Shown here in pieces: positions 2,660-24,457 of a DNA stretch of 64,000 bases. The DNA is from Aminivibrio pyruvatiphilus. Lineage in GTDB: Bacteria > Synergistota > Synergistia > Synergistales > Aminobacteriaceae. Under the pieces are notes generated by a model. It had not been told where the DNA came from. It made no database searches and saw only the letters and a list, made by a program, of their open reading frames with translations. Position numbers and translations under genes: made by a program. Position 1 is the first letter of the stretch. Each line of letters starts with the position of its first letter. The stretch covers positions 1,148-65,147 of the forward strand of contig NZ_SORI01000015.1 in assembly GCF_004366815.1 (NCBI RefSeq), in the 5' to 3' direction.

Positions 2660-3480
2660 GTATATTCAAATGGCGGTGGTGTCAAGGGTGTTGCCATCCT
2701 GAGCGAATGCGATGGATCTCGGACTTGAGGCACACCAGAGTCAAAATCGAGGTCCTTCCCCTCCGGGGATGCTCCCTCCGCTTCGCTTGGGTGCTGCGCG
2801 ATCGCGATCGCGGTGCTCAGGACGACAAAAAACAAGGTCTCAGGACGACAGAGGGTTGTCATCCTGAGACCGGGGGTATGGCCGAAGGATCTGGGGTGAG
2901 TTTCTGGACCTCGATTCTTTTGAGTCTGAATGCCGAAGTTTTGAAACATCCGGTCTGGACGCACTTCAAAAGCCAACCCGGATCCTTCGCTGCCGCTCAG
3001 GATGACAGAAAAAGGTACTCCTTGCTGTGGGATGCTCCCTCCGCTTCGCTTGGGTGCTGCGCGATCGCGATCCGGCGAAAAGCACACCGTCAGGACGACA
3101 GGCAAGGGCACTAAACCGAGATTCTTCGTCGCTGCACTCCTCAGAATGACAAAATTACGGCCCCGGCCACGGGCTCGGGGGCATACTGAGCGAAAGCCGT
3201 TGCGCAGTATCCCCGGAGGGGAAAGACCTTGGATTTGTCGTCCTGAACGGAGTGAAGGACCTGAATTCAGGTCCTCAGAATCAAAACCGAGATCCTTCCG
3301 GCGAAAAGCACGCCGTCAGGATGACAAACAAGGGGCAAACCCGTTCGCTCGGGACGACAAATAACTGCCGCTCGTTTGGGGCGACCGACAACTGCATTCG
3401 AGCGGGACGGAGGGTGTCATCCCGAGCGATCGCGATCGCGGAGCATCCCCGGAGGGGAGGGATCTCGCTCCTGGTATCTC
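2660..3480. repeat. Intergenic repeat array, same family
   Basis: Multiple copies of the GTCATCCTGAGC / GCTCAGGATGACA and CGAGATCCTTC / GAAGGATCTCG modules, plus the CCCTCCGGGGATGCTCC and GCGATCGC motifs. Confidence 0.8.
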
Positions 3481-3551
3481 CCCGTTTTCATTTTTCTGCG
3501 GCGCTATGCTATCCTTTTTTAGATGCGAAAAAGGCCGGAGGAGCTGAAGTC

Positions 3552-3866
3552 ATGGAGCGTTCCTATTACGTCTATCTTCTTGCAAATGCAAACAACCGGG
3601 TGCTCTACACCGGAGTCACGAACAACCTGAAGCGGCGGCTTTTTGAGCATAAGCGCGGTCTTGTCGAAGGGTTTACGAAGAAGTATCGTGTTCATAAACT
3701 GGTGTATTTCGAGGAAACCAATGATGTTAATACTGCGATAGCAAGGGAAAAGGAAATAAAGGGATGGATCAGGGCGAAGAAAAACGCCCTTGTCGAGAAA
3801 GAGAATTCAGGTTGGAGTGATCTGAGCAAGGGATGGGAGGTCGATTCTTCCCTTCCGGAAAAGTGA
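3552..3866 (+). CDS. GIY-YIG nuclease family protein (small URI-domain protein, COG2827-like)
   Basis: 104 aa. YYVYLLANANNRVLYTGVTNNLKRRLFEHKRG...IAREKEIKGW is a canonical GIY...YIG motif. Flanked on both sides by repeat arrays. Confidence 0.8.
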   Translation: MERSYYVYLLANANNRVLYTGVTNNLKRRLFEHKRGLVEGFTKKYRVHKLVYFEETNDVNTAIAREKEIKGWIRAKKNALVEKENSGWSDLSKGWEVDSSLPEK

Positions 3867-3899
3867 TCGTACAAAAAAGACAGTTTGTAGGAAGTGTTT

Positions 3900-4560
3900 G
3901 GAGTGTTATGTCATCCTGAGGCCTGCTGGAATGCTGTCATCCTGAGCGCAGCGTGACCTTGAAATCCACAAAAAACAACCCTGAGATCCTTCCCCTCCGG
4001 GGACGCGATCGGGCGGTGAAACAGCCCTCAGGATGACAGAACCCATACTTCCCGCTTCGCTCCGGATGCTCAGCGACCGCGATCGCTGCGCTCAGGATGA
4101 CAAACAAGGGCAATAGCGGCCCTTTCTTGACTCTGGTGTGTCATTCTGAGGGCGAAGCCCGATCGCGGAGCATCCCCGGAGGGGAAGAATCTGCACTTGA
4201 AGTGGCTCAGAATCAAAGGCAGGTCCCTCGCCCCCTCCGGGGACGAGATCGGGTGGTGAAACAGCCCTCAGGAAGACAGAACCCATACTTCCCGCTTCGC
4301 TCTGGGTGCTACGCGACCGCGGTCGCTGCGCTCAGGATGACAAACAAGGGCAATAGCGGCCCTTTCTTGACTCTGGTGTGTCATTCTGAGGGCGAAGCCC
4401 GATCGCGGAGCATCCCCGGAGGGGAAGAATCTGCACTTGAGGCAGCCCAGAATCAAAGGCAGGTCCCTTCTACACGGAGGGGAAGGGGTTCTTCATAAAG
4501 GGTTAGAGTCAAAACCGAGATCCTTCCGGCGAGAAGCCACGCCGTCAGGATGACAGCCGA
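3900..4560. repeat. Intergenic repeat array including a ~240-bp direct duplication (approx. 4010-4250 vs 4250-4490)
   Basis: Near-identical blocks ACAGCCCTCAGGA(T/A)GACAGAACCCATACTTCCCGCTTCGCTC...GGCAATAGCGGCCCTTTCTTGACTCTGGTGTGTCATTCTGAGGGCGAAGCCCGATCGCGGAGCATCCCCGGAGGGGAAGAATCTGCACTTGA occur twice. Confidence 0.8.
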
Positions 4561-5827: not shown

Positions 5828-6772
5828 ATGCCAGGGGGAGGAAGGATCCGGATCGGAACCTGTTCATGGGCGGACCGGGGGCTCGTCGCCAGCGGATGGT
5901 ATCCTCCTTCCGCCCGGACGGCCGCCGCGAGGCTGGCGTTTTACGGGGCCGCTTTCGATACCGTGGAGGTGGACAGCACCTTCTACGCCATCCCCGAGCA
6001 GGCATCGGCCTTCCAGTGGGCCGCCAGGACTCCTCCGGGCTTTTTGTTCAACGTGAAGGCCTGGGGGCTGTTCACCTGGCACTCGGTGAAGTACGAGACC
6101 CTTCCTGAATGGGTGCGCCATGAAATTCCCCGGCCGGAGTCTGGGCGCCTCGATTTTCAGGGCCTGCCCCGGGAGCTCCGGCCCGTTCTCTGGAAACGGT
6201 TCACTTCCGCCCTGGAGCCTCTCCGGACCATGGACCGCATGGGGTACCTCCTGTTCCAGCTTCCCCCGAAGGCTTCCTTTTCACCGGTGATGATGCGCTA
6301 TCTCGAGCGGGTGGCGGAGGTCACTCCTCCTTTCCGCACGGCGGTGGAGGTGCGGAACAGGTCGTGGATGGAGAAGGGGAACCGGGAATCCTTCCTGTCG
6401 CTGCTTAAGGGGGCGAACATGGCCTACGTGGCCGTGGACGAGCCGGAGCTCGACTGGACCGTGGGAAGGGATTTTCCGGTGACGGCCACCTGGGGGGCCG
6501 TGGCGCGGTTTCACGGGCGGAACAGGGAGGGCTGGACAAAAAAAGGAGCCACGGTGGCGGAGAAATTCCGCTACAATTACTCAGACGGGGAACTTCTCTC
6601 CTGGGAGGGGGCTGTCAGAGACGCCGCGGAGCGGGCCGGCAAGGTCTTCCTCATGTTCAACAACTGCTACCGGGATTATGCGGTGAAAAACGCCCTCAGG
6701 ATGAAATGCCTCCTCGGCGTGGCCTGTTCTCCGGGAGAGGGCGTCCAGGGGGAACTTTCCTTTGGAGAATAA
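5828..6772 (+). CDS. DUF72 (YecE/UPF0759) family protein
   Basis: IRIGTCSWADRGLVASGWYP...FDTVEVDSTFYAIP...FLFNVKAW...AVEVRNRSWME match the conserved DUF72 blocks. Confidence 0.8.
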   Translation: MPGGGRIRIGTCSWADRGLVASGWYPPSARTAAARLAFYGAAFDTVEVDSTFYAIPEQASAFQWAARTPPGFLFNVKAWGLFTWHSVKYETLPEWVRHEIPRPESGRLDFQGLPRELRPVLWKRFTSALEPLRTMDRMGYLLFQLPPKASFSPVMMRYLERVAEVTPPFRTAVEVRNRSWMEKGNRESFLSLLKGANMAYVAVDEPELDWTVGRDFPVTATWGAVARFHGRNREGWTKKGATVAEKFRYNYSDGELLSWEGAVRDAAERAGKVFLMFNNCYRDYAVKNALRMKCLLGVACSPGEGVQGELSFGE

Positions 6773-7108
6773 AGCTGAAAACATTAGAAAATAAGAGCCT
6801 GCAGTCTGGAATCGCCAATATTTCCGCTCCATAGGGCGTAGTCAGTGTTGATGAAAAGCACCCCCAAGGGTAGAATACTCTAAACGGGTTATCCGGACGG
6901 AGAGAACAGAAACGAGAAGCAAGTCAGGAAAAACCGATAGAAGCAGAAACAAGTCCAAGACAGCCTGTACCATGTTCCACCAGCACCGGAAGCTACACTG
7001 AAAAGAACCGGAACAAAAGAAGCATGTAAGGGTATATGCAACAATATCAAGGAGCTGGTTGTTTGACCAAGTGTCAGCACCACCGCGCCGGATAGCCCGT
7101 AAACAATC

Positions 7109-7146
7109 GGAGGGGGGATTTTTCCCCCTCCTTTTTTTATTTTTTC
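7109..7146 (+). terminator. Rho-independent terminator ending a ~330-nt low-GC non-coding stretch
   Basis: GGAGGGGG-gattttt-CCCCCTCC perfect 8-bp stem followed by TTTTTTTATTTTTT. Confidence 0.6.
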
Positions 7147-7214
7147 ATCCATTCCGACAAAAAAGTGCTACTATTACTGTGGAACACAATATCCGTCAAG
7201 GGGAGGGAATGTGC

Positions 7215-7841
7215 ATGCGTTTTTGGGTTCTTTTCTGCCTGGTCTTTTCAATGCTTTTTACCGGGGTGTCCGGGCTAACTCCTGCACTCGGGGCTGACGA
7301 GGCCCTGCTTCGGGGAGTCGTGTACGACGAAGGGCAGAAGGGACTGCCCGGCGTCGCAGTTTCCGTGTGGGACGGCAAACTGTCCTACAAGGCCGTCACT
7401 GATTTCGACGGGAATTTCACCATCCGGGGGCTCATTCCCGGAAAGCCCTTCGCCATCCGGTGGACCCCCCGGGGCGGCAATTCCGTGAAAGTTGACGCCC
7501 TGACCTTTCCCGCCGAAGGAGACCTCCATCTGTCCATGGATTACGGTTCCGTGGGCAGGGGGAACGTCTACACGGTGCGCCTCCCGTCCAACCCCTCCAC
7601 GGGATACGGCTGGACGGCCCTTCACCAGGGGGTTGCCGTGGTGCGTCTGAAGGAAAATACCTTCCACGGGGAAGGGGATTCTTTCCCCGAGAGGGCAAAG
7701 ACCGGACGGCCAGGCACGGAGCTGTGGAAGTACGAGGGAATCGCGAAGGGAAATACGGCCCTCATTTTCGGCTACCAGCGCCCGTGGGAGAAGGGGACCA
7801 CTCCCGTGCGGTACCATGTTCTTTCCATGACGGTAAGATAG
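7215..7841 (+). CDS. Secreted chagasin-like cysteine-peptidase inhibitor (family I42) with an N-terminal CarboxypepD_reg-like domain
   Basis: Signal peptide MRFWVLFCLVFSMLFTGVSG. Chagasin signature NPSTGYGW (compare NPTTGY) inside YTVRLPSNPSTGYGWTALH...ELWKYEGIAKGNTALIFGYQRPWE. RBS GGGAGGGA upstream. Confidence 0.65.
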   Translation: MRFWVLFCLVFSMLFTGVSGLTPALGADEALLRGVVYDEGQKGLPGVAVSVWDGKLSYKAVTDFDGNFTIRGLIPGKPFAIRWTPRGGNSVKVDALTFPAEGDLHLSMDYGSVGRGNVYTVRLPSNPSTGYGWTALHQGVAVVRLKENTFHGEGDSFPERAKTGRPGTELWKYEGIAKGNTALIFGYQRPWEKGTTPVRYHVLSMTVR

Positions 7842-7862
7842 TTTGCTAAGAAAGGCATACCG

Positions 7863-7895
7863 GGCAGCCCTCCTTCCGAAGGCTGCCTTTTTTTA
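7863..7895 (+). terminator. Stem-loop plus T-tract after the inhibitor gene
   Basis: GGCAGCC-ctccttccgaa-GGCTGCC followed by TTTTTTTT. Confidence 0.5.
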
Positions 7896-7919
7896 TCCTG
7901 TGAAACCGGGAGGAAACCG

Positions 7920-9533
7920 ATGAAAATCCTTCGATCCGTTCTGCTTTTCTTCGCCGTTCTTTTTTCTGCCCTGATTACTTCATTTCCCCTGGAGGCTTTT
8001 TCCGTGTTTACCCGGCCTACCGGGGATGAATTCGCCCGGTTCCGGGAAAATCCGCCCTCAGGCCGGAATACCGCCGCCCATCCTCTGGGTTACCGGCCTT
8101 CGCCCCTGGACCTCTCCCATGTCCGGCCCTCCGCGTCTCTCAGGGGAGAACTGGACATCCTGGCGGCCGGGGCGGGAGGAGCCCCCGTCTTTCCCCGGAG
8201 CTTCGACCTGAGAGAACTGGGCGCCCTCACTCCGATGAGGGACCAGAATCCCTTCGGCACGTGCTGGGCCTTTGCTTCTCTGGCGTCCCTCGAGTCCACC
8301 TTCCTGAAGGCCGGGAAGGGGGCCTTCGACTTTTCCGAGTGGCACCTCGCGTATTTCGCCTACGTGGACGAGGATCCTTCTCTGCCCGCCTTCACGGCGA
8401 CCGCCCCGGGATTTGGCTCAGACCCCATTTTCGACCAGGGAGGGAGCGTATTCCAGGCGGCAGCCCTTCTTGCCCGGTGGACGGGGGCCGTGGCGGAATC
8501 GACCCGTCCGTACCAGAACACCAGCCCGTGGCCGGAATCCAGCAGGCCCCGCGCCTCCGACAGGGCGGCGAAGCGGCTGGAGAACGTCTTCCTGATCCAG
8601 GGTGAAGGATTACTGGACGAGGAGGCCGTCAAATACGCCCTGATGCGCTGGGGGGCGGTGAGTGTCCGGGTGGTCTGGGATGACGGCGCCTATTCCGAAG
8701 ATCACGCTTCCTTCTACAATGCTCCGGAATCAGGAGGCGGCCATATTGTGACCGTCGTCGGGTGGGACGACGATTTTCCGGCGGCGAATTTCGTTGCCGC
8801 TCCCGGCCGCGACGGGGCATGGATCGTTCGGAACAGCTGGGGTACCGGCTGGGGAGAAGAGGGGTATTTCTATCTTTCCTACGCCGAGCCGACCCTGGGC
8901 TATCCGGCGGTCTTTCTCGGCGGAGACGACACTGCATTCGACAGGATCTACCAGTACGACCCCCTCGGATGGGTGAATAATATAGGTGCCGGAGGCGAAA
9001 CGGCATGGTTCGCCAACATTTTTGAATCCCGGGGAAATGAAACCCTCGAGGCCGTATCCTTCTACGTTCCGGCACCCGACGCGTTTTTGCGGGTGGAGGT
9101 CCGGACGGGAGTGGCGCGGGACGACCCAGGGAGCGGCGAACTGGTCTCCGTGATGGAGGATATCCTGGGACCGTCGGGTTACCACACGGTGCGTCTTTCC
9201 AGGAGTGTTCCGCTGTCGGGAGGCCGGAGATTTTCCGTGGCGGTGAGGGTTACCACGCCGGGGTTTCTCAATCCCGTCGCGGTGGAATCCCGGGAAATCG
9301 GCTACAGCGACAAGGCGGACGCGGAACCGGGGCAGAGCTTCATCAGTTCGGACGGGGTATCCTGGAACGACCTGACGACCCTTCCCGGTCACGGAAATTC
9401 CAATGTCTGCCTGAAGGCCTTCACTTCCGTTTCCTCGTCCGGCGGCGGGTGCTCCTTTGGGGGAGAATCCGGAGTTTCCGGTCTTCTGCTCCTTCTGCCC
9501 CTGGTTCCGGTGCTCTGGAGGCGGAGGAAGTAA
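7920..9533 (+). CDS. Secreted papain-like cysteine peptidase (C1A family) with C-terminal extension and a GGGC-TM-RRRK sorting tag
   Basis: Catalytic Cys block DQNPFGTCWAFASLASLE. His block GGGHIVTVVGWDDD. Asn block NSWGTGWGEEGYFYLSY. Signal peptide present. Tail SSGGGCSFGG...LLLLLPLVPVLWRRRK. Confidence 0.85.
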   Translation: MKILRSVLLFFAVLFSALITSFPLEAFSVFTRPTGDEFARFRENPPSGRNTAAHPLGYRPSPLDLSHVRPSASLRGELDILAAGAGGAPVFPRSFDLRELGALTPMRDQNPFGTCWAFASLASLESTFLKAGKGAFDFSEWHLAYFAYVDEDPSLPAFTATAPGFGSDPIFDQGGSVFQAAALLARWTGAVAESTRPYQNTSPWPESSRPRASDRAAKRLENVFLIQGEGLLDEEAVKYALMRWGAVSVRVVWDDGAYSEDHASFYNAPESGGGHIVTVVGWDDDFPAANFVAAPGRDGAWIVRNSWGTGWGEEGYFYLSYAEPTLGYPAVFLGGDDTAFDRIYQYDPLGWVNNIGAGGETAWFANIFESRGNETLEAVSFYVPAPDAFLRVEVRTGVARDDPGSGELVSVMEDILGPSGYHTVRLSRSVPLSGGRRFSVAVRVTTPGFLNPVAVESREIGYSDKADAEPGQSFISSDGVSWNDLTTLPGHGNSNVCLKAFTSVSSSGGGCSFGGESGVSGLLLLLPLVPVLWRRRK

Positions 9534-9536
9534 AAC

Positions 9537-10060
9537 CGGGATCCCTCCCCTCCGGGGATGCTCCGCGATCGCATTCGCTCGGGATGACATCAGTTTCTGT
9601 CGTCCTGAGCAACGCGAAGGACCTCGATTTTGATTCTGCTCTCTCTAAAGGATACTTCGCGAGCGCATTTGTTTGTCATCCCGAACGACCGAAGGGCGGA
9701 GGGATCTCGGCTTTGGTTCCGAGTGCCGTCAACCCCGAGATCCCTCCCCCTCCGGGGATGCTCGGCATTGGTTTGTCATCCCGAACGACCGAAGGGCGGA
9801 GGGATCTCGGCTTTGGTTCCGAGTGCCGTCAACCCCGAGATCCCTCCCCTCCGGGGACGCGATCGGCCATGGTGCCGGCCTCGGGATGACAAGCCACTTC
9901 GCTCGGGATGACAGATCGGTCGGTGTCATTTTTTAGTTGTCATTCCGAGGAGCGGTTTTGGCGACGAGGAATCTCGCTTTGGATTCCAGGCGGACTCAAC
10001 CCGAGATCCCTCGGCCAAAAACCCGACCTCGGGATGACACCTTTTAGAGAATTCCATGCC
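9537..10060. repeat. Intergenic repeat array, same family
   Basis: Repeated blocks TTTGTCATCCCGAACGACCGAAGGGCGGAGGGATCTCGGCTTTGGTTCCGAGTGCCGTCAACCCCGAGATCCCTCCCC(C)TCCGGGG at ~9668-9760 and ~9772-9860. Confidence 0.8.
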
Positions 10061-10089
10061 GTTTTTATTGAAAAAGGAGAGACCCTTCA

Positions 10090-11757
10090 ATGAGACTGAC
10101 CCGTTCCATTCTTTTCGCTGCCGCATGCATTTTCCTGCTTTCTCCGGATCTGTCCGCTTCAGAAAAGTGGAGAACTGCCCCTCTCAACACCGAGTTTTTG
10201 GCTCACCGTTCAGGGATGAGCTTCAATCTCCATTCTATGGGTGGACCGGGCAGGATGAATACGGCCCATCGGCGGATGCTCGGAGAAGTACCTTCCCCCC
10301 TCGACCTTTCCCACGTGAGGGCTCCCGTGCATTTTTCCGGTATCCGGGGGGGAGGCGACGTGTCTGCCTCCGCCGTCTCCTTCCCTTCGTCCTTCAGCCT
10401 CCCCGCTGAGGGGCGGATGACGCCGATACGGGACCAGGCGCCCTACGGAACCTGCTGGGCTTTCGGCGCTTTTGCTTCCCTCGAGTCCTTTTTTGCCGGC
10501 CAGGGGGAGGAGAACCTTGATTTTTCGGAGTGGCATCTCGCCTATTTCGCCTATGTGGACGAAGGGGAGGGACTGCCGGGATTCACACAACACCTGGACC
10601 CCCAGTTCGGGGGAGACCCCGTTTTCGACCAGGGGGGAAACGCATGGAAGTCCGCTGCACTTCTCGCCCGCTGGACCGGCGCAGTGGCGGAAGCCGACCG
10701 GCCCTACCAGAACGTCACCCCCTGGCCGGAGGAAAGCAGGCCCCTCTCATCGGACAGAGCGGCGAAGAGGCTCGAGCACGTTCTTTACCTCGGCTCGGCG
10801 CCCGATATGGACAGCATAAAATACGCCCTCACCCACTACGGAGCCGTTCGCATCGGCGTCAGATGGCCTTACTGGGATTTTGAACACGAGGTGCTCAGCC
10901 CTTCCTTCGCCTTTTACAACTACGATCCTGTCGGTTTTCAGAGCGGAGGCCATGCGGTGGCCATTGCCGGTTGGGACGACGATTACCCCGCGGCCAATTT
11001 CGTTGGGGATCCTGGACGGAACGGCGCCTGGCTGGTGAAGAACAGCTGGGGGGAAGCATGGGGAAATGACGGGTATTTCTGGGTTTCCTACGCCGACCCC
11101 ACGCTGAACAGCCCGTCGGCGTACATCGGTGGAGAAGCGGACATCTTCGATTCCGTCTACCAGTACGACCCGCTTGGATGGGTGAACGATTACGGCGCCG
11201 GGAACGAGACTGCCTGGTTCGCCAACGTCTTTGCCGCTTCGGAAGGGCGCCCCGGGCTGGCCGAGGTACTTCGGGCAGTTTCCTTTTATTCGGCAGCCAC
11301 GGAGAGTTCGTATCGCATTGAGATCAGGCGGAACGTGTCCCGTTCCGCTCCTTTTGAAGGCGTCCCGGTGTCCGTGAAGGAGGGGGTTTTGGGACCGTCA
11401 GGCTATCATACGGTTCGGCTAGACAGGGAGGTCTTTCTCTCCCCGGGCAATCTTTTTTCCGTGGCGGTGAAGATCACCACTCCGGGCTACGCCTATCCCG
11501 TACCTCTCGAATCATCGGAAGCCGGCTACAGCGACAAGGCGGATGCTGGACCGGGGCAGAGCTTCATCAGCGCCGACGGGGTTTCCTGGAACGATTTGAC
11601 GGCTCTTCCCGGGCACGAAAAGTCCAACGTCTGCCTGAAGGCCTTCACTTCCTTCGCAGAAAATTCCGGGGGCGGCTGCTCCCTGGGAGGAGGCGGGTTC
11701 GCAGGTCTTCTGCTCCTTCTGCCCCTGGTGCCGGTGCTCAGGAAGCGGGGGAAATAA
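10090..11757 (+). CDS. Secreted papain-like cysteine peptidase (C1A family), paralog of 7920-9533, with the same C-terminal sorting tag
   Basis: DQAPYGTCWAFGAFASLES; GGHAVAIAGWDDD; NSWGEAWGNDGYFWVSY. Tail NSGGGCSLGGGGFAGLLLLLPLVPVLRKRGK. Confidence 0.85.
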   Translation: MRLTRSILFAAACIFLLSPDLSASEKWRTAPLNTEFLAHRSGMSFNLHSMGGPGRMNTAHRRMLGEVPSPLDLSHVRAPVHFSGIRGGGDVSASAVSFPSSFSLPAEGRMTPIRDQAPYGTCWAFGAFASLESFFAGQGEENLDFSEWHLAYFAYVDEGEGLPGFTQHLDPQFGGDPVFDQGGNAWKSAALLARWTGAVAEADRPYQNVTPWPEESRPLSSDRAAKRLEHVLYLGSAPDMDSIKYALTHYGAVRIGVRWPYWDFEHEVLSPSFAFYNYDPVGFQSGGHAVAIAGWDDDYPAANFVGDPGRNGAWLVKNSWGEAWGNDGYFWVSYADPTLNSPSAYIGGEADIFDSVYQYDPLGWVNDYGAGNETAWFANVFAASEGRPGLAEVLRAVSFYSAATESSYRIEIRRNVSRSAPFEGVPVSVKEGVLGPSGYHTVRLDREVFLSPGNLFSVAVKITTPGYAYPVPLESSEAGYSDKADAGPGQSFISADGVSWNDLTALPGHEKSNVCLKAFTSFAENSGGGCSLGGGGFAGLLLLLPLVPVLRKRGK

Positions 11758-11759
11758 AA

Positions 11760-12340
11760 TCGAGATCCCGAGCATTCGCTCGGGATGACAGTAGTTTCTG
11801 TCGTCCTGAGCAACGCGAAGGACCTCGATTTTGATTCTGCTCTCTCTAAAGAACGTTCCGCGATCTCATTTGTTTGTCATCCCGAACGACCGAAGGGCGG
11901 AGGGATCTGCCCTCTGGTTCTGAGTGACGTCAAACCCGAGATCCTCCCCCTCCGGGGATGCTGCGCGATCGCTGCGCTCAGGATGACAAACCGCTGCGCT
12001 CAGGATAACAAACAAGGCTGTCATCCTGAGGGTTGCTTCACCGCCCGAAGGATCTCGGTTTTGATTCTCGCTTTTTTGGTTTTACCGGATTCCAACCCGA
12101 GATCCTTCGCTGCGCTCAGGATGACAACAGTTTCTGTCGTCCTGAGCAACGCGAAGGACCTCGGTTTTGATTCTGCTCTCTCTCAAGGATGCTCCGCGAT
12201 CTCATTTGTTTGTCATCCCGAACGACCGAAGGGCGGAGGGATCTCGCCTTTGGTTCTCGGGGTTGGTTTTTTGTGGATTTTAAGGGCGAGATCCTTCGCT
12301 GCGCTCAGGATGACAAACCGCTGCGCTTAGGATGACAGCT
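11760..12340. repeat. Intergenic repeat array, same family
   Basis: AGTTTCTGTCGTCCTGAGCAACGCGAAGGACCTCG(A/G)TTTTGATTCTGCTCTCTC...ATTTGTTTGTCATCCCGAACGACCGAAGGGCGGAGGGATCT block occurs at ~11785-11905 and ~12125-12245. Terminal GCTCAGGATGACAA copies. Confidence 0.8.
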
Positions 12341-12342
12341 TT

Positions 12343-13752
12343 TTACTTCTTCCTTCTCATCAGCAGGCCGAGAGGAAGCAGGAGAAGTGCCAGGGCCGGA
12401 GCGGCTCCACCCGTCGCATTGCATCCGCCGCCGCCCCACTCCTCGGTCGGGGAGGCGCTTGCCATGGCGGCCTGGAGATTGAGGTATCCTCCCGTGGCGA
12501 CCTGGCCGGAGAGATGGGAAGTCTTCGTCACGTTCCCGAGGATTCTGCTCCTGATCTTCCATGCCGCTTCCGACGGATACCTGGCCGCCAAAAGGGCTGC
12601 CGCACCTGACACATGGGGTGTGGCCATGGAGGTGCCGTTCAGTTCCCTGTATCCTCCGTCGTGGTAGGTGCTCCAGATACCCACTCCGGGAGCCGCCAGG
12701 TGAACGTAGCGGGAGCCGTAATTATAGGCCCGGTAGCCGCTTGAATTGATCGCGGTGACGGTGATCATGTTACTTTCATCGAAAGAGGCGGGGTAAGGAC
12801 GTTCTCCGTCGATGGGGTTGTCTATGTTGTACCCATCGTTTCCGGCGGCGAAAACGAGAAGAATTCCCTGGTCCGCTGCGGCCCTGCAGGCAGTTCGCAG
12901 CGTCGTGACGGCGCTGCTGTAGGGCGAAACCCATCCAGCCAGGGAAAGGTTGGCGACACGGATGTTGCGGCCATTTCTCTTTTGCGCTGTTATATAATCC
13001 AGACCCTGGGCTACAGAGCCAAAGGTTCCGTCCCCATTCGAGTCAAGTACTTTGACCGCCAGGAGGCTCACTTGCCAGTTGACACCGGTGACACCCCTGC
13101 CATTATTGCCCACGGCGCCGATGGTCCCGGCGACATGAGTGCCGTGGCCGTTATCGTCCATGGGGTTGTTGTCATTGTTCCAAAAATCCCAGCCGTAGCG
13201 GCCGGAGAGGTCCCTTCCCATATTGGCCGCGAGGTCTTCGTGGTTGTAGTTGATCCCGCTGTCAAGGACGGCCACGTAGACGCTCCTGCTGCCCACGGAC
13301 CTGTCCCATGCCGCAGGGGCACGGATGGTGTTCAAACCCCATAGACTGTTGTTCGTATAGTATGGATCGTTTGGCGTCCGGGTGGCGTAAACCCGGTAAT
13401 TGGGCGACGCGGCGAGGACGGCAGGATTTCCCTCCAGGGCCTGCAGCAGTTCCTCCGTGGTCTTTTCCCCGCTTCTCAGAAGAACGATGTCCTTTCCCGT
13501 GACCTCGGCTATGGCGGGGGTGGAACTCACCGCCTGCGCCCCGGCGGAAGCCGCCACTTTTGCCGCCGAAGCGGAAAGGGCCTGGCGGAATGCGGCGGCG
13601 CTTACAGATTCGGCCGTAACCGGGGCCTTCAGGAGGACGAGGACTTCTCCTTCAGGGTAGTCATTATTTCCTTCCCGAAGCTCCGAGGCGCCCGCCACAG
13701 AGGCCAGTCCCAGAAGGACAACCAGGGCGACGATTCTTCCGACTCTCCTCAT
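12343..13752 (-). CDS. Secreted subtilisin-like serine peptidase (S8 family) with a GGGGC-TM-RRKK C-terminal sorting tag
   Basis: Catalytic triad blocks VAVLDSGINYNHEDL (Asp), HGTHVAGTIGA (His) and GTSMATPHVSGAAALL (Ser). Signal peptide MRRVGRIVALVVLLGLASVAGA. Start assigned at the Met following an RBS. Tail GGGGCNATGGAAPALALLLLPLGLLMRRKK. Confidence 0.85.
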   Translation of the reverse strand: MRRVGRIVALVVLLGLASVAGASELREGNNDYPEGEVLVLLKAPVTAESVSAAAFRQALSASAAKVAASAGAQAVSSTPAIAEVTGKDIVLLRSGEKTTEELLQALEGNPAVLAASPNYRVYATRTPNDPYYTNNSLWGLNTIRAPAAWDRSVGSRSVYVAVLDSGINYNHEDLAANMGRDLSGRYGWDFWNNDNNPMDDNGHGTHVAGTIGAVGNNGRGVTGVNWQVSLLAVKVLDSNGDGTFGSVAQGLDYITAQKRNGRNIRVANLSLAGWVSPYSSAVTTLRTACRAAADQGILLVFAAGNDGYNIDNPIDGERPYPASFDESNMITVTAINSSGYRAYNYGSRYVHLAAPGVGIWSTYHDGGYRELNGTSMATPHVSGAAALLAARYPSEAAWKIRSRILGNVTKTSHLSGQVATGGYLNLQAAMASASPTEEWGGGGCNATGGAAPALALLLLPLGLLMRRKK

Positions 13753-13789
13753 TATTTCCACCTTCTTTCTTTTGGGGCTCTGAATGCTC

Positions 13790-14213
13790 TCTAGTGCGAG
13801 ATTCCAAGGGCGAGATCCTTCCCTTCCGGGGATGCTCCTCCCTCCGCTTCGCTTGGGTGCTGCGCGAGCGCGATCGCATTCGCCCGGGATGATAAGGCGA
13901 GACGAGAACAAGCCAAAGCGAGAACAAGCCAAAGCGAGAACAAGCCAAAGCGAGAACAAGCCAAAGCGAGAACAAGCCAAAGCGAGATCCTTCGCTGCGC
14001 TCAGGATGACAATCCAAGGGCAAGATCCTTCCCCTCCGGGGATGCTTCGCGATCGCTTCGCTCAGGATGATAAACCGCTTCGCTCGGGATGATAAACAAG
14101 ACTGTCATCCTGAGGCCGGTTTTTTGGCCGAAGGATCTCGGGGTTGACTCTGAATGAAGTAAACCCGAGATCCTCCCCCTTCGGCGATGGCGCCTGCCTC
14201 GGGATGACAACTC
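13790..14213. repeat. Intergenic repeat array containing a 16-bp tandem repeat (GAGAACAAGCCAAAGC x5.5, 13905-13990) upstream of the S8 peptidase gene
   Basis: The 16-mer recurs head-to-tail. It is flanked by CGAGATCCTTCCCCTCCGGGGATGCT and GCTCAGGATGACAA family modules. Confidence 0.8.
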
Positions 14214-16163
14214 TTACCAGCCGCCGCCCCCGCCCCCGCCGCCTCCGCCTCCGGACGAGCCGCCGCCTCCGCTGCCGCTTGACGAACCGGGCGCCTGGGA
14301 GGCCGACGCTATGGTGGACGACATGGAGGACGCCAGCGAGGCCACTGCCCCTCCGGTGTAGAAGTTCGCCGCGGAGGGTCCCGAGTACCAGTCGGGCTGG
14401 TACTGCTGCTGTCTGAGGATATCCTCGAAGCGGTCCGCCCACGTTTCCGCCGTGTCCAGGGCGAAAGCGTAGGGAAGGAGCTTTTCAAAGACCTCCGGCG
14501 TTTCCTCCGGCGGGTTGAACATTTCCAGCCGGTGCCGCTCGGCGGTGCCCATGTACATGGCCAGGCCGTCTGCCTCGTTCAGCACGTCGTTTCCTTTCTC
14601 CGTCCTGACCGTCATGAGCTCCCGGAAGACCAGGATCATCAGTCCGGCCGCCAGGGGCGGCACGAGGAGCCATCCGCTCACCTCTGTGAGGGCGGCCAGG
14701 AAGAGAAGGGTGATGATCGTCGCGAATATGGCCGGGATGAAGGCCGTGATGATTTTCCGGAGAATGCGTCCCCTGCTCCTGATTCGTTTCCAGGCGAAGA
14801 TGTAGAGTGCTCCCGCTGCGAGGATTCCGCCCACGGCAAAGACGGAGAGCAGGGCGCCGTCCTCCTGGCCGCCCCAGGCGAGAAGGGCGTAGATCAGGAC
14901 GGGGATGAGAAACCCCGCCGCCCATATGAGGGTGTTTTTTGAGAAAAGTGACTTTGAGGCGTCCGACCAGGAGGCTTCCAGGGTTTCCTTCGCCTTGCCG
15001 AGGATTTCATGGTTGTCCTGGACGAGATGGAGCTCTTTTCTTCCCCGGGCAAAAAGGGCGTTGAAAAGCCGTGATTCCTCCTTCGAGGGAGTTGTCTTCC
15101 ATCCTTCCCTGGGAAGGGACACAAGGGCGTATCGTTTCCCGGCAAGCTTGGAAGCCAGGGACACCACGCCCCGCAGCAGGCTCTTTTTCCCTATTTCGCC
15201 CTGCCGCTCCATGGCCTCCTCGAGGGACATCTCCTCGATTTTGAGGAAGCCCCTGACCGCCAGGTTCAGGATTTCAGCGGTGAAGCAGGAGTTGTCCATG
15301 CCCATCCGCCTGACGAAGCGGAGGAAGCCCGGTCCGTTGCCTGCCGTGGGGCTGAAGAGGGGGATCACCGGTTTTCTCGGGGGATCCTTCCCCCAGCGGA
15401 TCCAGGCGAGGGCGTAGTACAGGAGCAGCAGAAGGGGAACGCTCCAGAAAAATACAGTGCCGAAGCGGTCGAAGAGGGCATAGCGGATGGGCGGTTTCGG
15501 CTTTTCCACGATGCCCTTGGGCCAGGTATAGGCCACGGTCAGGCCTTCACCGGGGGCAAGACGCCGGGTGGTCTCCACCGAGTTGTCGGGGAGGATGCGG
15601 GCATCCTGTCCACGGGCTCCCTGGGGGCCTGTATAGATATCGACGGACGAAAAGGGGACATTGCCCGGCAGCGAGGCGGAAAAGCGGGCTTTCAGTATGG
15701 GGAAGACCCAGTCGTTTCCGGTGACGTTCCAGTAGAGTTCGTCGTGTTCATCGAAAAAACCGAGCTGGCCGGTGGTCACGTAGACGAGAGTGTAAGTCTG
15801 CTCGCCGAGGGGGGCATTTCCTTTCGGGTCTCCGAGGTAAACCCGGACGCCGTTGGAGCGGGATTCGGTGCTGTAGGGAACCCGTTTTCCGTTGAGAAGG
15901 GCTTCTTCAACGGAAAATCCGACCCGGACGGTTTTGCCGGAACTGTCCGTGTAGGTGGTGGGAAAGTCCCGGAAAATGCCTTTCCGGATACGCACTCCTT
16001 CCACGCGGACGGTGATGTCTTCCCGTACTTCGAGGGAAGCGTCCCCGCGGACGGAAGCCGAAGAGGAAAAAAGGAGAATGGCCTCCTCAGCCCCGGAAGG
16101 CCGGGGGAGGAGCACCAGGGCCAGCGCGAGAAGCGCCGGCGCAAGTTTGCGGAACAATACCAT
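14214..16163 (-). CDS. DUF2207 domain-containing membrane protein
   Basis: 649 aa. Signal peptide, large N-terminal extracytoplasmic domain, central TM helices, and a Gly/Ser-rich tail (...[22 protein letters not shown]) typical of DUF2207. Adjacent to LemA, a conserved pairing. Confidence 0.7.
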
Positions 16164-16879: not shown

Positions 16880-17400
16880 GAGGTAATCCTGAGGGCGTTT
16901 TCGGATTGTCATCCTGAGGAGCGTAGCGAGGAAGGATCTCGGGATTGACTCTGAATGGAGTAAAAATCGAGATCCTTCCCCTCCGGGGATGCTTCACGAT
17001 CGGCCATGGAGCCGGCCTCGGATGACAAACAGGGGCGAGATCCTTCGCTGCGCTCAGGATGACAAAGCAAAAGCATGATGGCAAACTGCTGCGTTCAGGA
17101 TGACAAACAGGGGCGAGATCCTTCGCTGCGCTCAGGATGACAAAGCAAAGAGCATGATGGCAAACTGCTGCGTTCAGGATGACAAACAGGGGCGAGATCC
17201 TTCGCTGCGCTCAGGATGACAGAGCCGCTGCGCTCAGGATGACAAAGCAAAAGCATGATGGCAAACTGCTGCGTTCAGGATGACAAACAGGAGCGAGATC
17301 CTTCGCTGCGCTCAGGATGACAGAGCCGCTGCGCTCAGGATGACAGAGCCGCTGCGCTCAGGATGACAGGCTATTCGGGACGACAAGGTCCTTTGAAGGT
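16880..17400. repeat. Repeat array with ~83-bp tandem units (3+ copies) and reiterated 23-bp GATGACAGAGCCGCTGCGCTCAG sub-units
   Basis: CAAACAGGGGCGAGATCCTTCGCTGCGCTCAGGATGACAAAGCAAAAGCATGATGGCAAACTGCTGCGTTCAGGATGA repeats head-to-tail across 17027-17300. Confidence 0.85.
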
Positions 17401-19191: not shown

Positions 19192-20376
19192 GTGGAAAAA
19201 GAAAACGATCGGGAAAATGCCTTTTTTGAAGATCTCGTCGCTGTCCGCCGGAGGCTTCACGCCTGTCCGGAGCTGGATTTCGACCTGAAGGAAACCGTGG
19301 GGATCGTTGGGGAAAGCCTCGATTCCCTGGGTATTCCATGGCGGTTCGTCGCCGGAAGCGGCATTGCCGCCCTCCTGGAGGGAACGGAGCCCGGGCGGAC
19401 GGTGCTGCTGCGGGCGGACATGGACGCCCTTCCCGTGGAGGAGGAATGGGAAGTTCCCTGGCGGTCGAGGTATCCCGGGAGAATGCACGCCTGCGGCCAT
19501 GACGTCCACACCGCCTGCCTTCTCGGGGCGGCCCGCCTGCTGGCGGACAGGAAGAACGATTTTTCCGGGAACGTCCTTTTCGTCTTCCAGCCTGCCGAGG
19601 AGACCTCCGGGGGAGCCCTTCCCATGATCCGGGACGGCCTGCTTGAGGGGCCGGCGCCCGACGGGGCCTTCGCCCTTCACTGCGATCCCTCCCGCCCGGC
19701 GGGAACGGTGGGGGTTCACCGTGGGGCCTTCAGGGCGGCATCGGACATGTTCGACTGCGTGGTCAGGGGAAGGGGAACCCACGGAGCGGAGCCCCACAGG
19801 GGCGACGACGTGATCGCCGCGGCCTGCAGGGTGGTGACCGCCCTCCACGAGCTGGTGGGGCGGACGGTGTCACCGGCGGAGCCGGCGGTTCTGTCCATCG
19901 GTTCCTTCCACGGGGGAAGCGCCAGGAACGTGCTGCCGGAGCGGGTAGAGTTCTCCGGGATCCTCCGCACGCTGAAACAGGAGACGAGGGTCGCCCTGAA
20001 GGCGAAGATCCGGCGGACGGTGATGAACATCCCCGATATCCTCGGTGCCGTGGGCGAAGTGTCGTTCACCGAAGGATATCCCGCCCTCTTGAACGACCCT
20101 GAGCTGGCCGACCTGGTCCTCCGGGCCGCCGAAGGGGTTCTCGGGAAGGAGAACGTTGCGGTCCTCACGGAGCCGAGCATGGGGGTGGATGATTTTTCCT
20201 TCTTTCTGCAGCGGATGCCCGGGTGCTACTTTATGCTTGGAACCGGCACGGGGAAGGGGGAGGACGCCCCTCTCCACAGCCCCCGGTTCCGCCCGGACGA
20301 ACGGTGTCTTCCCGCCGGGGCGGAGGTGCTGGCCGCCGCGGCGCTTTCCTTCCTCGCGGGGGATTACCAGAAATAG
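19192..20376 (+). CDS. M20 family amidohydrolase (N-acyl-amino acid amidohydrolase / hippurate hydrolase-like, M20D)
   Basis: VRRRLHACPELDFDLKET...LLRADMDALPV...MHACGHDVHTACLLGAARLL is a canonical M20D metal-binding block. Confidence 0.85.
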   Translation: MEKENDRENAFFEDLVAVRRRLHACPELDFDLKETVGIVGESLDSLGIPWRFVAGSGIAALLEGTEPGRTVLLRADMDALPVEEEWEVPWRSRYPGRMHACGHDVHTACLLGAARLLADRKNDFSGNVLFVFQPAEETSGGALPMIRDGLLEGPAPDGAFALHCDPSRPAGTVGVHRGAFRAASDMFDCVVRGRGTHGAEPHRGDDVIAAACRVVTALHELVGRTVSPAEPAVLSIGSFHGGSARNVLPERVEFSGILRTLKQETRVALKAKIRRTVMNIPDILGAVGEVSFTEGYPALLNDPELADLVLRAAEGVLGKENVAVLTEPSMGVDDFSFFLQRMPGCYFMLGTGTGKGEDAPLHSPRFRPDERCLPAGAEVLAAAALSFLAGDYQK

Positions 20377-21590
20377 TCGAAGAGCTGCCCCATGGGGAAG
20401 CCCGAGATCACCGACCGACCGAATCGGGAGTACAGGTTCCGCTTTCCGTCGGCCAGCGCCTGCGGGGCGAGCCCGAGACGGATGGAGTGGGATGCCTCGA
20501 TGTAGGCCGCCAGTTTGTCGCAGGCCTCGATGATCCGCCCGTCGAGAGGGTTGAGTTCGTCCCTGTTCTGTTCTTCCCTGATGTCGCCGTCGAGGAGGGC
20601 CGGAACGTCCACTCCCTTCGGGCAGATCTTGTTGCGGAACTCGTTCTCGGTGAAGTACCGGATCTCCTGCCGCCACCCTTCGGGGAGGAGGGGGAGGATC
20701 CGCTCCTCCATGGCCTGCTTTTCGTAGGCCTTGATGAGGTCGTCGAGCCCCTCCACGGAGTTTTTCACCGGGGAGACGATGTCCCGGGTCAGCACCTCGG
20801 GAAGGTCGTGGAGCAGTCCGCCGAAGAAGTTGTTGTATTTCCTCCTGGGGCAGGCGCCGGTCTCCATGGAGATGAAATAGGCGAGGACGGCCACGAAGAG
20901 CAGGTGTCCAAGGACCGATGTCTGGGGGATCCGGGGAGTCTGGGCCCACCGCTTCTGGAAGCCCAGCTGTCCCACCAGGGAGACGAAGCCCCAGAGACCC
21001 ATGTCCCTGTCGGGCAGTTCCCGGGCGGCGAGCATTTCGTCCACCGCCCGCAGGTCCCGGTGCTCGTTGATCTGTCTTGAAATCTCGCCCCTGGTCTGCT
21101 CGATGCCGAACATGGACTTGGTGCTGCTCCAGTGGTAGATGAAGTCGAACTCCCACTTGGTGGCCAGGTAGTGGGCCGCCCGGAGGCTTTTGCGCTCCAG
21201 GGAGAGGTCCCCGTCGTGGAGAAGATACGCCCGGAAGCGGGCGGCGAAGTCCGGGGACAGACCCTCGAGATCGGGGGCGAGCCTGTCGGCCACCCAGGAG
21301 TTGAGCTTTTCCCTCTGCCCGGGGTCCTGCATGAGCTTGTGGAAGACGGGAGGTTTGATGTCCGTCAGGACCACCCTGTGAAGGAACTCGAAGATCCCCC
21401 CCTCGATGAGGGCCGTCCAGTCGATGTCCCGGCCCCGTTCCTCTCCCTCGTACCGGGCGATGACCCACGCCATGATCATCTTGTGGGCCTGCTTTCCCAG
21501 CTCGGTGAAGGTGGCTGGGTGGGGGTGGTCGTTCCAGCGCTCCATGCTGGCGGCGGAGAACACGAGTTCAATCAGGGAACGGGTTATCAC
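20364..21590 (-). CDS. HD-domain phosphohydrolase (YfbR-like N-terminus, apparently two HD-like modules)
   Basis: ERWNDHPHP...H motif near the N-terminus. Second module HLLFVAVLAY...HDLPEVLTRDI (HD signature). Confidence 0.6.
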   Translation of the reverse strand: MITRSLIELVFSAASMERWNDHPHPATFTELGKQAHKMIMAWVIARYEGEERGRDIDWTALIEGGIFEFLHRVVLTDIKPPVFHKLMQDPGQREKLNSWVADRLAPDLEGLSPDFAARFRAYLLHDGDLSLERKSLRAAHYLATKWEFDFIYHWSSTKSMFGIEQTRGEISRQINEHRDLRAVDEMLAARELPDRDMGLWGFVSLVGQLGFQKRWAQTPRIPQTSVLGHLLFVAVLAYFISMETGACPRRKYNNFFGGLLHDLPEVLTRDIVSPVKNSVEGLDDLIKAYEKQAMEERILPLLPEGWRQEIRYFTENEFRNKICPKGVDVPALLDGDIREEQNRDELNPLDGRIIEACDKLAAYIEASHSIRLGLAPQALADGKRNLYSRFGRSVISGFPMGQLFDYFW

Positions 21591-21713
21591 GGGAATTGCC
21601 CTCCTTTTCCCGGCGGAAACGGCCGGAATATCCGTTTTTTTTATTATACAGCTCGCCGGGCGACCGGAGGAAAGAGGGGGCGGGGTTCGGTGATTGTGTA
21701 TGCAGTATCCTTC

Positions 21714-21743
21714 TTGACAGCGAGGCTTCCCGTGGCCTATAAT
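21714..21743 (+). promoter_or_regulatory. Near-consensus sigma70-type promoter for the peptide ABC transporter operon
   Basis: TTGACA (21714-21719), 18-nt spacer, TATAAT (21738-21743), ~105 nt upstream of the SBP start codon. Confidence 0.5.
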
Positions 21744-21850
21744 CCTTCCGTATGCAGAAGGGGATGCACCAGGGAAAGCCTGTCAAGATCAATGCAAAAG
21801 GCAACTTTTTCCCGGCCTCTCTGCGTAAATATATCGAAGGAGATGACAGA

Positions 21851-23362: not shown

Positions 23363-23500
23363 GAGGAGACCGTCGGAGAACCGCTTCTGCCGGGGCTCCC
23401 TGGCTGCACGTCCGGCTGAAGTACTGAAAGCGGTCATGTTGCAGGAGCATGGAGAATTCTATGCTCCTGCTTTATTTTCCAACGGAAGGATGAACAGCGT

Positions 23501-24427
23501 ATGTTCAAATATATAGCCAGAAGGATCCTCTTTCTTCTCCCTGTGCTCGTGGGGGTCTCGTTCATCGTTTTCTCCCTCCTCTATATCACTCCCGGCGATC
23601 CCGCCCGGATGGTCCTCGGAGACCAGGCAACGGAGGAGGCCGTCCAGGAATTCCGCAACAAGGAAGGGCTGAACGATCCTTTCCTGGTCCAGTACGGTCG
23701 GTATGTCTACAAGGCGCTCCAGGGTGATATCGGCCGTTCGTACATGACACGGCGCCCGGTATCCGATGAAATTCTCTCCGCCTTTCCGTCCACCATCAAG
23801 CTCGCGGCCTTGTCCATGGTGATCGCGATTCTTCTCGGCATTCCCTTCGGCATTATTTCGGCGATCCGCCAATATTCCCTGTTTGATTCAGTGACCATGA
23901 TTTTTGCGATGGTGGGGCTTTCCATGCCGGTGTTCTGGCTCGGAATCCTGCTGATCCTGTTTTTTTCGGTCCAGCTTCGCTGGCTTCCTTCATCGGGGTT
24001 CGACTCTCTCGCAGCCATGATTCTTCCCTCGATTACCCTCGCCGCCCAGTCGGTGGCGATCGTGACGCGGATGACCCGTTCGAGCATGCTTGAAGTCGTG
24101 CGGCAGGACTACATCCGGACGGCCCGGGCCAAGGGGCAGAAGGAATCGGTGGTCATCTGGAGGCATGCCCTGGGGAACGCCCTCATCCCAGTGGTTACGG
24201 TGGTGGGACTTCAGTTCGGCCATCTTCTCGGCGGCGCCGTGCTTACGGAGTCCATTTTCTCCATTCCCGGGGTGGGACGGCTTATGGTGGAGGCCATCAA
24301 GATGCGGGACTACCCCCTGGTCCAGGGCGGCGTTCTGTACATAGCCATAGCCTTCAGCCTGGTTAATCTGCTGGTGGACCTTGTCTATGCCTGGGTCGAT
24401 CCCCGGATCAAGGCGCAGTACAAATGA
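23501..24427 (+). CDS. ABC transporter permease (DppB/OppB-like)
   Basis: MFKYIARRILFLLPVLVGVSFIVFSLLYITPGDPA N-terminus. BPD_transp_1 EAA-like region. Confidence 0.9.
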   Translation: MFKYIARRILFLLPVLVGVSFIVFSLLYITPGDPARMVLGDQATEEAVQEFRNKEGLNDPFLVQYGRYVYKALQGDIGRSYMTRRPVSDEILSAFPSTIKLAALSMVIAILLGIPFGIISAIRQYSLFDSVTMIFAMVGLSMPVFWLGILLILFFSVQLRWLPSSGFDSLAAMILPSITLAAQSVAIVTRMTRSSMLEVVRQDYIRTARAKGQKESVVIWRHALGNALIPVVTVVGLQFGHLLGGAVLTESIFSIPGVGRLMVEAIKMRDYPLVQGGVLYIAIAFSLVNLLVDLVYAWVDPRIKAQYK

Positions 24428-24457
24428 GAGTGCCCCATACCGTCAGGAGGAACAGCC

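Follow-up and report, generated by a model that had tools for sequence, protein, structure and literature searches.

The 64-kb stretch of Aminivibrio pyruvatiphilus DNA analysed in this study (the window) contains at 7215-13752 a group of four genes, which code for a putative secreted inhibitor of the chagasin family (MEROPS I42), for two papain-like cysteine proteases of family C1A (C1A#1 and C1A#2) and for a subtilase of family S8. An earlier description of this DNA made from the letters alone (the sequence-only reading) had placed the inhibitor gene upstream of two paralogous C1A genes and a convergent S8 gene, and all four open reading frames (ORFs) were recovered in this arrangement (Table 1). 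The inhibitor gene lies directly upstream of C1A#1 on the same strand, and plausible Sec signal peptides could be read from the sequence at the N-termini of all four proteins.

All seven window proteins that were looked up gave exact database matches in records of A. pyruvatiphilus, a member of the Aminobacteriaceae (Synergistota; Synergistales). The inhibitor is identical to TDY57989.1 / WP_166670140.1, which bears the public name 'putative secreted protein', while near-identical proteins of Aminivibrio sp. are named 'protease inhibitor I42 family protein'. C1A#1 (TDY57990.1) and C1A#2 (TDY57991.1) are listed as 'C1A family cysteine protease / lectin like domain-containing protein' and the subtilase (TDY57993.1) as 'Synergist-CTERM protein sorting...' / 'S8 family peptidase'. 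All components belong to known families already recognised in databases. As far as our literature and database searches reach, the association of this inhibitor with proteases carrying a C-terminal sorting tag has not been described; a literature search on Aminivibrio proteases returned nothing.

Table 1. Positions of genes, tails and intergenic elements of the locus within the window
Feature	Position	Strand	Basis
Inhibitor gene, secreted two-domain I42 protein (208 aa)	7215-7841	+	ORF list, Pfam
Hairpin (GGGCAGCC...GGCTGCCU) and U7, between inhibitor gene and C1A#1	7862-7895	+	sequence, RNA fold
C1A#1, Cwp84-type papain-like cysteine protease (537 aa)	7920-9533	+	ORF list, Pfam
C1A#1 tail, residues 507-537: SSSGGGC SFGGESGVSG LLLLLPLVPVLW RRRK	9438-9530	+	HMM
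Repeat-filled intergenic block between C1A#1 and C1A#2, not island-specific	9534-10089	.	
C1A#2, paralogue of C1A#1 (555 aa)	10090-11757	+	ORF list, Pfam
C1A#2 tail, residues 526-555: NSGGGC SLGGGGFAG LLLLLPLVPVL RKRGK	11665-11754	+	HMM
Intergenic block with the same repeats between C1A#2 and S8	11758-12342	.	
S8 tail, residues 440-469: WGGGGC NATGGAAPALA LLLLPLGLLM RRKK	12346-12435	-	HMM
S8 subtilase (469 aa), convergent with C1A#2	12343-13752	-	ORF list, Pfam

Gene products of the locus

The inhibitor starts with a hydrophobic signal sequence (MRFWVLFCLVFSMLFTGVSGLTPALGA/DE), which is followed by a CarboxypepD_reg-like beta-sandwich (residues ~30-105) and by the I42 domain (~113-208); its sequence contains neither a C-terminal sorting tag nor a lipobox. 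In Pfam searches the model Inhibitor_I42 (PF09394) matched residues 117-200 with 60.7 bits (cut-off 27.2, E 1.8e-16), and CarboxypepD_reg reached 32.0 bits, just below its cut-off of 32.3. Sequence matches in the PDB were obtained to the Pseudomonas aeruginosa inhibitor ICP (2wgn, E 2.4e-8), to amoebiasin-2 (3.4e-8) and to chagasin (4.5e-6). The L2 loop reads NPSTG (within NPSTGYGW), a conservative change from NPTTG, the L6 loop (RPWE) has kept RPW intact, and the first and last Gly of the L4 loop (GRPG) are conserved across the inhibitor family.

For structure prediction with AlphaFold2 (AF2) an alignment of 40 diverse homologues was needed, which gave a predicted local distance difference test (pLDDT) score of 91.0; a model made with a 10-sequence alignment (pLDDT 44) was discarded. 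The top Foldseek match of the model was EhICP2 (3m88/3m86) with an E value of 1.4e-7 and a target-normalised template modelling (TM) score of 0.71-0.75. Comparison to chagasin (2oul/2nqd/2h7w) revealed a target-normalised TM score of ~0.70 at a root mean square deviation of 3.0-3.3 A. The N-terminal half of the protein formed a separate beta-sandwich. On the strength of the hidden Markov model (HMM) match, the loop motifs, the PDB matches and the modelled fold, the C-terminal half is assigned to the chagasin family (I42), as the sequence-only reading had proposed. A HMMER scan of 1.84 billion representatives disclosed about fifteen 50%-identity clusters that matched the whole two-domain length, the remaining I42 matches being mostly single domains or tandem I42 arrays. 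We also noticed a Cys within the hydrophobic core of the signal peptide (window 7222-7241; residues 7-9 are Phe-Cys-Leu), which is nearly invariant in close homologues and does not fit a lipobox.

C1A#1 and C1A#2 are 57% identical and share the same architecture, comprising in C1A#1 a signal peptide, a short conserved propeptide-like segment, the C1A domain, a lectin-like domain and a C-terminal tail. Peptidase_C1 (PF00112) scored 86.2 bits on C1A#1 and 71.9 bits on C1A#2, and the domain Lectin_like (PF18560) behind the catalytic domain was matched over its full length with 153.3 and 154.8 bits, respectively. The catalytic residues Gln109, Cys115, His275 and Asn305 are invariant in an alignment of 16 C1A sequences, which bears out the earlier statement that two paralogous C1A enzymes with intact catalytic residues are encoded. 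The nearest solved structure to C1A#1 is Cwp84 (4ci7/4d59, E 1e-28), whose similarity extends over residues 95-504 and thus over the catalytic and the lectin-like domain. No CWB2 domain occurred among the Pfam matches of C1A#1 and C1A#2. The C1A-lectin family is very widespread and includes many accessory domains.

The S8 protein is composed of a signal peptide, a fervidolysin-type N-terminal prodomain (Fervidolysin_NPro-like, 21.5 bits), the catalytic domain (Peptidase_S8, PF00082, 169.8 bits) and a C-terminal tail. Its triad is readable in the translation in the order D-H-S, within the motifs DSG, HGTH and GTSMATP. In the related loci L002, L003 and L090, which are dealt with below, the S8 gene is accompanied by a gene for a conserved small secreted protein (L002 15309-15755, minus strand; L003 4992-5486, plus strand; L090 3288-3701, plus strand) with the motifs ...IPGEYLVLF...GKGMFFV...MRADPLIEAVSPNE... 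and without a Pfam match. The small protein weakly resembles the N-terminal prodomain of the window S8 protein (two-sequence blastp, E 4e-5) and may, judged by its sequence, represent a propeptide-like inhibitor or chaperone encoded as a separate protein. In the window this gene is missing, and repeats take up the corresponding slot (13753-14213). About six copies of a 16-nt tandem repeat (AAGCCAAAGCGAGAAC) lie at 13894-14003, ahead of the S8 start codon and on the strand opposite to the gene.

C-terminal tails and predicted export

The three proteases terminate in SSSGGGC-SFGGESGVSGLLLLLPLVPVLW-RRRK (C1A#1), NSGGGC-SLGGGGFAGLLLLLPLVPVL-RKRGK (C1A#2) and WGGGGC-NATGGAAPALALLLLPLGLLM-RRKK (S8), beginning 31, 30 and 30 residues, respectively, from the stop codon. 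In each case a Gly/Ser-rich motif with a Cys precedes a Pro-containing, Leu-rich helix and a cluster of Arg/Lys. The tail Cys is followed by 8-11 small residues in all three proteins, the Gly/Ser spacer being less marked in S8, and a spacer of this kind also occurs in the tails of relatives. A six-frame pattern scan of the window did not reveal a fourth tail of the type GGGC/hydrophobic/basic. Hence, the tripartite tail that the sequence-only reading had ascribed to all three proteases can be read in the translations, is unique to these ORFs in the 64 kb and exceeds what chance would produce.

The published Synerg-CTERM signal, which is restricted to Synergistales, begins with a cluster rich in Ser and Gly whose last residue is an invariant Cys; a Leu-rich transmembrane helix, in which a Pro is invariant, adjoins this signature without a spacer, and the end is Arg-rich (bioRxiv 10.1101/2023.06.07.544157). 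Its model TIGR04564 matched the S8 tail with 26.4 bits, above the curated cut-off of 22.5. Of the sorting-signal models proposed in the sequence-only reading, Synerg-CTERM thus emerged as the named candidate, with the S8 tail above and both C1A tails below the cut-off. TIGR03382 reached 21.5 bits on the S8 tail (cut-off 15.85), and MYXO-CTERM gave 19.2 bits on the C1A#1 tail (cut-off 20). According to Haft, complete counts of MYXO-CTERM need lineage-specific models (bioRxiv 10.1101/2023.06.07.544157). A lineage-specific HMM was built from the tails of 21 relatives, with neither the window nor the two relatives nearest to it included. It scored 28.2 bits on S8, 23.4 bits on C1A#1 and 20.2 bits on C1A#2, the next best of 1112 six-frame ORFs having 5.5 bits.

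Within the C1A family, 12 of 16 members matched TIGR04564 at E <= 0.1 (best E 7.1e-7), and several C1A homologues have been named 'Synergist-CTERM' proteins by JGI. Among 80 genome loci with C1A-lectin homologues, the Cys/helix/basic tail was confined to proteins of Synergistota, while homologues from Firmicutes, actinomycetes and archaea stop at the lectin-like domain or bear other modules. The tail Cys is nearly invariant across the C1A homologues, and the helix Pro is conserved in many of those from Synergistota. Because of the 12 family matches, the restriction of the tail to Synergistota and the selection of exactly three ORFs by the lineage-specific HMM, we concluded from these sequence comparisons that all three tails are very probably the known Synerg-CTERM signal. 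Two members of the 16-sequence alignment, likely P0015 and P0017 (the latter from Desulfonatronum thiodismutans), match JDVT-CTERM and not Synerg-CTERM (best E 1.2e-5), so that the C1A-lectin family appears to bear different Cys-type tags of the myxosortase class across phyla.

The enzyme predicted to process Synerg-CTERM is MrtS (NF040589), a glutamic intramembrane endopeptidase of the CPBP family, which is predicted to act together with a divergent type II secretion system (bioRxiv 10.1101/2023.06.07.544157); models of the subunits of this system are available (NF041616-NF041619). Sorting enzymes of the myxosortase type are not encoded beside their cargo (bioRxiv 10.1101/2023.06.07.544157). 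It is this CPBP-type enzyme with type II secretion that is predicted here, and not an exosortase, archaeosortase or rhombosortase, the enzyme types envisaged in the sequence-only reading. For MYXO-CTERM it has been demonstrated in Myxococcus xanthus that MrtX cleaves the signal in a Cys-dependent manner, and the working model comprises Sec export, anchoring by the helix during folding, lipidation of the Cys, cleavage by the myxosortase and type II export to the surface (PMC11980579). By analogy, the three proteases would cross the inner membrane via Sec and would be retained by the C-terminal helix at the periplasmic face while they fold. The tail Cys would be lipidated, the helix and the Arg/Lys cluster would be removed by MrtS, and the dedicated type II secretion system would carry the proteases to the surface, where the lipid anchor would be kept. 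We therefore infer from this analogy that the tagged proteases are surface enzymes exported by Sec, MrtS and type II secretion and held by a lipid anchor. In 84 loci searched with the motif EExxxR...FxxxH...HxxxN no CPBP gene was found near a related Synergistota locus, a true CPBP protein being present in only one actinomycete locus.

The tails might instead be plain anchors in the inner membrane that face the periplasm and undergo no cleavage, lipidation or export. The low TIGR04564 scores of both C1A tails and the lack of genes for a sorting enzyme or secretion system in the window are in line with this explanation. However, the S8 tail exceeds the curated cut-off, a mere anchor would need neither the Cys nor the helix Pro that are conserved across many Synergistota homologues, and in other lineages the same protease family bears JDVT-CTERM, another tag of the Cys type. 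Moreover, the signal is limited to the lineage in which MrtS co-occurs (bioRxiv 10.1101/2023.06.07.544157), and enzymes of the MrtS type are not expected near their cargo. We regard plain anchoring as very improbable.

Linkage of inhibitor and protease genes and its interpretation

To the window we compared relatives encoding two-domain I42 proteins with 36-85% identity to the window inhibitor. The gene order I42-C1A-C1A-S8 of the window, including an orthologue of C1A#2, recurred in L002 (84%-identical relative), whereas L004 (65%-identical relative) has I42-C1A and L003 (GCA_018433135.1) S8-I42-S8-C1A-S8. In L084 the I42 gene (6001-6621, 47% identical) occupies the same syntenic slot without any protease. 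Four loci have inhibitors of 36-40% identity. They contain a C1A gene with Synerg tail, followed by the I42 gene, a small protein and S8 (L090), an S8 gene with Synerg tail and the I42 gene (L085), the I42 gene with a remnant of lectin-like domain and tail (L088), and the I42 gene only (L086). Altogether, a tagged protease gene lies immediately beside the two-domain inhibitor gene in six of eight contexts, down to 36% inhibitor identity. Viewed from the protease side, an I42 gene was detected within 10 kb of a C1A-lectin homologue in merely two of 80 genome loci (L004 and the Bacillota locus L012), and I42 adjacency as a general trait of C1A-lectin proteases was therefore rejected. The two counts indicate that the linkage is a trait of one Aminobacteriaceae-like clade, in which it is frequent, not obligatory.

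The slot is bordered by DUF72 on one side and by DUF2207/LemA/DsbD (in L084 also M20) on the other, and its content varies: in the slot genomes the inhibitor is constant and the number of proteases ranges from 0 to 4. DUF2207 and LemA were considered as members of the island and dismissed, since both flank the slot even where it holds no protease (L084). In L084 it is the inhibitor, rather than the proteases, that appears as the stable resident of the slot.

The intergenic region of inhibitor gene and C1A#1 contains a hairpin (7862-7888) with a folding energy of -18.7 kcal/mol (z -1.95), which is succeeded by seven T. Although a consensus terminator scanner did not report it and it was found by reading and folding of the sequence, the hairpin agrees with the previous claim that the inhibitor gene has its own terminator. 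A strong terminator was indicated by the scanner at 7109-7131, upstream of the inhibitor gene, where it ends the preceding DUF72 gene. From the U-run to the ATG of C1A#1 (7920) only ~25 nt remain, including the Shine-Dalgarno sequence GGGAGG, which is too little for C1A#1 to have its own promoter behind the hairpin. The element is also present in L002, and L004 contains at the same position a hairpin with a different stem sequence and a T-run. The hairpin with its U7 is probably an operon-internal, leaky intrinsic terminator, which would keep the inhibitor transcript in excess over the protease transcript.

The interpretation that we favour, and hold to be moderately likely, is that of a cell-surface protease locus in which Synerg-CTERM-tagged proteases are combined with a periplasmic I42 protein acting as a safety catch against the bacterium's own C1A enzymes. 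The untagged inhibitor would stay in the periplasm or would not be anchored at the surface, and its NPSTG, GRPG and RPW loops would enter the active-site cleft of C1A enzymes that mature before export. Since on this sorting route folding of the proteases would take place in the periplasm, it would make sense for a chagasin without a tag to guard the C1A enzymes there; S8 would rely on its own prodomain. Restraint of the bacterium's own C1A enzymes by the inhibitor is probable on sequence grounds and would be the only fresh point of the locus. A further-reaching proposal is that the two-domain I42 protein would be the first bacterial chagasin to target enzymes of its own producer, dedicated to C1A cargo of the myxosortase/type II route and with its stoichiometry set by the leaky terminator. 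We see the chances of this proposal as evenly balanced.

Several findings weigh against the safety-catch interpretation. The characterised bacterial chagasins (Pseudomonas Cip1, Cpi1 and ICP) all inhibit eukaryotic proteases, none of them an enzyme of its producer. In the L4 loop of the window inhibitor, Pro occupies the third position (GRPG), while the consensus is GxGG. On the tails of C1A#2 and C1A#1 TIGR04564 yielded 16.8 and 13.9 bits, respectively, both below 22.5, and these tails contain behind the Cys a Gly/Ser spacer of 8-10 residues, which in C1A#1 includes a Glu. Pfam searches of 44 proteins revealed no CPBP gene (PF02517, MrtS) and no type II secretion gene in the window; this absence does not count against the sorting model because such enzymes are not encoded near their cargo. 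Finally, the inhibitor gene has no adjoining protease gene in two relatives (L084 and L086), and 16 other Synergistota C1A-lectin loci do not contain an I42 gene within the available flanks.

Alternatively, the inhibitor may be directed against papain-like proteases of foreign origin, be it from predatory protists, competitors or a host, and its position would then be a by-product of a variable slot for exoproteins. This would fit the eukaryotic targets of the characterised bacterial chagasins, which in Pseudomonas are produced by bacteria without endogenous C1 enzymes. It would also fit the solitary inhibitor genes of L084 (in the same slot) and L086, the terminator-like hairpin behind the inhibitor gene and the constancy of the inhibitor in a slot with 0 to 4 proteases. 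Yet a Synerg-CTERM protease gene adjoins the inhibitor gene in six of the eight independent contexts, C1A#1 has no space for a promoter of its own behind the hairpin, and the organism, unlike Pseudomonas, encodes C1A enzymes. Taking these points together, we consider an exclusively foreign target doubtful, and an endogenous and a foreign role are not mutually exclusive.

Surroundings and comparison with known systems

The probable physiological role of the proteases is extracellular protein breakdown. Its products would feed an oligopeptide ABC transporter and M20/M42 aminopeptidases encoded 5-16 kb downstream. In this region a peptide-utilisation cluster (19192-29643) comprises genes for an M20 peptidase, an SBP_bac_5 binding protein, two permeases, two oligopeptide ATPases, an M42 aminopeptidase and a second M20 protein. 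The cluster, with its Opp/Dpp-type transporter and M20/M42 enzymes, fits amino-acid fermentation and a nutritional role of the proteases; A. pyruvatiphilus is a diderm soil bacterium, described as an amino-acid-fermenting anaerobe. Instead of degrading nutrients, the C1A-lectin enzymes could act as maturases of the bacterium's own surface or S-layer proteins, as does Cwp84, a suggestion which concerns the physiological role only. Cwp84, the nearest solved structure including the lectin-like domain, cuts the S-layer precursor SlpA. We found, though, no S-layer gene in the 64-kb window, the C1A-lectin family has a very wide distribution and numerous accessory domains, and two paralogues plus S8 near an Opp/Dpp transporter and three aminopeptidases rather fit the scavenging of protein. 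A role as maturases is thus unlikely, and extracellular breakdown remains the preferred explanation.

An interspersed repeat with the core CGCTCAGGATGACA has 65 matches in the window (<=2 mismatches, 0.44 expected), which are clustered in intergenic gaps at 800-1100, 2690-4550, 9570-9913, 11777-12337, 13998-14116, 16907-17368 and 29770-30496. Composite units of up to 186 nt are located at 9571-9756, 11772-11957 and 12108-12293. Repeats take up the regions behind both C1A genes and the one upstream of S8, and a 181-aa ORF at 11785-12330 consists of repeat sequence and is spurious. Since an Rfam search of 6500-14500 gave only two sub-threshold chance matches, the intergenic repeats lie outside the described RNA families. 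An organic-acid block at 46571-63256 encodes TctA and TctC (tripartite tricarboxylate transporter), a DctM-family (TRAP-type) permease, two members of the PEP-mutase/isocitrate-lyase family, aconitase and citrate lyase beta and alpha; this block has no connection with the proteases.

If the I42 protein indeed has an endogenous target, the locus would answer for one lineage what bacterial chagasins are for. It offers a natural pairing of an I42 protein with the producer's own C1A enzymes, conserved in several Aminobacteriaceae-like genomes, by which endogenous regulation is directly testable, and for the still computational Synerg-CTERM/MrtS pathway it provides enzymatic cargo of two easily assayed protease classes. 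Otherwise, it represents ordinary gene content of a proteolytic anaerobe.

Compared to members of the chagasin/ICP family (MEROPS I42, PF09394), namely Trypanosoma cruzi chagasin, Entamoeba histolytica EhICP2, P. aeruginosa ICP (2wgn), P. syringae Cip1 and Pseudomonas Cpi1, the window inhibitor shares the Ig-like fold (TM ~0.7 to 3m86, 2oul and 2nqd) and the NPxTG and RPW loops, and like the Pseudomonas chagasins it has a signal peptide. It differs in the additional N-terminal CarboxypepD_reg-like beta-sandwich and in the L4 loop (GRPG instead of GxGG), and unlike Cpi1 it is not a lipoprotein. Furthermore, its gene adjoins C1A genes of the same organism, whereas the chagasins of Pseudomonas, which has no C1 enzymes, target plant enzymes.

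The window C1A enzymes have the C1A and lectin-like (PF18560) core in common with Cwp84 of Clostridioides difficile (4ci7, 4d59), which is a cell-surface enzyme, while the surface location of C1A#1 and C1A#2 is predicted. Full-length Cwp84 is anchored by three C-terminal CWB2 cell-wall-binding repeats, in place of which the window enzymes end in a Synerg-CTERM tail that would suit the envelope of a diderm. With Synerg-CTERM (TIGR04564) the proteases of the window share the tripartite C-terminal tail and the host order Synergistales, the C1A tails deviating from the published signal by the extra Gly/Ser spacer between Cys and helix and by scores below the cut-off. The Synerg-CTERM/MrtS pathway is a computational prediction only, in contrast to the experimentally studied MYXO-CTERM/MrtX system.

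In function, the nearest known counterparts are the potempin/KLIKK pairs of Tannerella forsythia (PMC9890683) and the staphostatin/staphopain operons of Staphylococcus (PMC7863939). In these systems, as in the window, the gene of a small inhibitor directly precedes or adjoins that of a secreted protease equipped with a C-terminal secretion or sorting domain. The statement of the sequence-only reading that such an arrangement is rarely described in bacteria hence holds for inhibitors of the chagasin family but not for protease-inhibitor gene pairs as such. Potempins and staphostatins protect the producer from its own enzyme, and the same role is proposed for the window inhibitor, although their folds are unrelated to I42. 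Potempins are lipoproteins of the outer membrane and staphostatins are cytoplasmic, whereas the window inhibitor is predicted to be exported; the proteases of those systems use type IX secretion or Sec only, while myxosortase and type II secretion are predicted for the window. Finally, one inhibitor gene precedes here a mixed C1A/S8 cluster, of which only the C1A enzymes are plausible targets.

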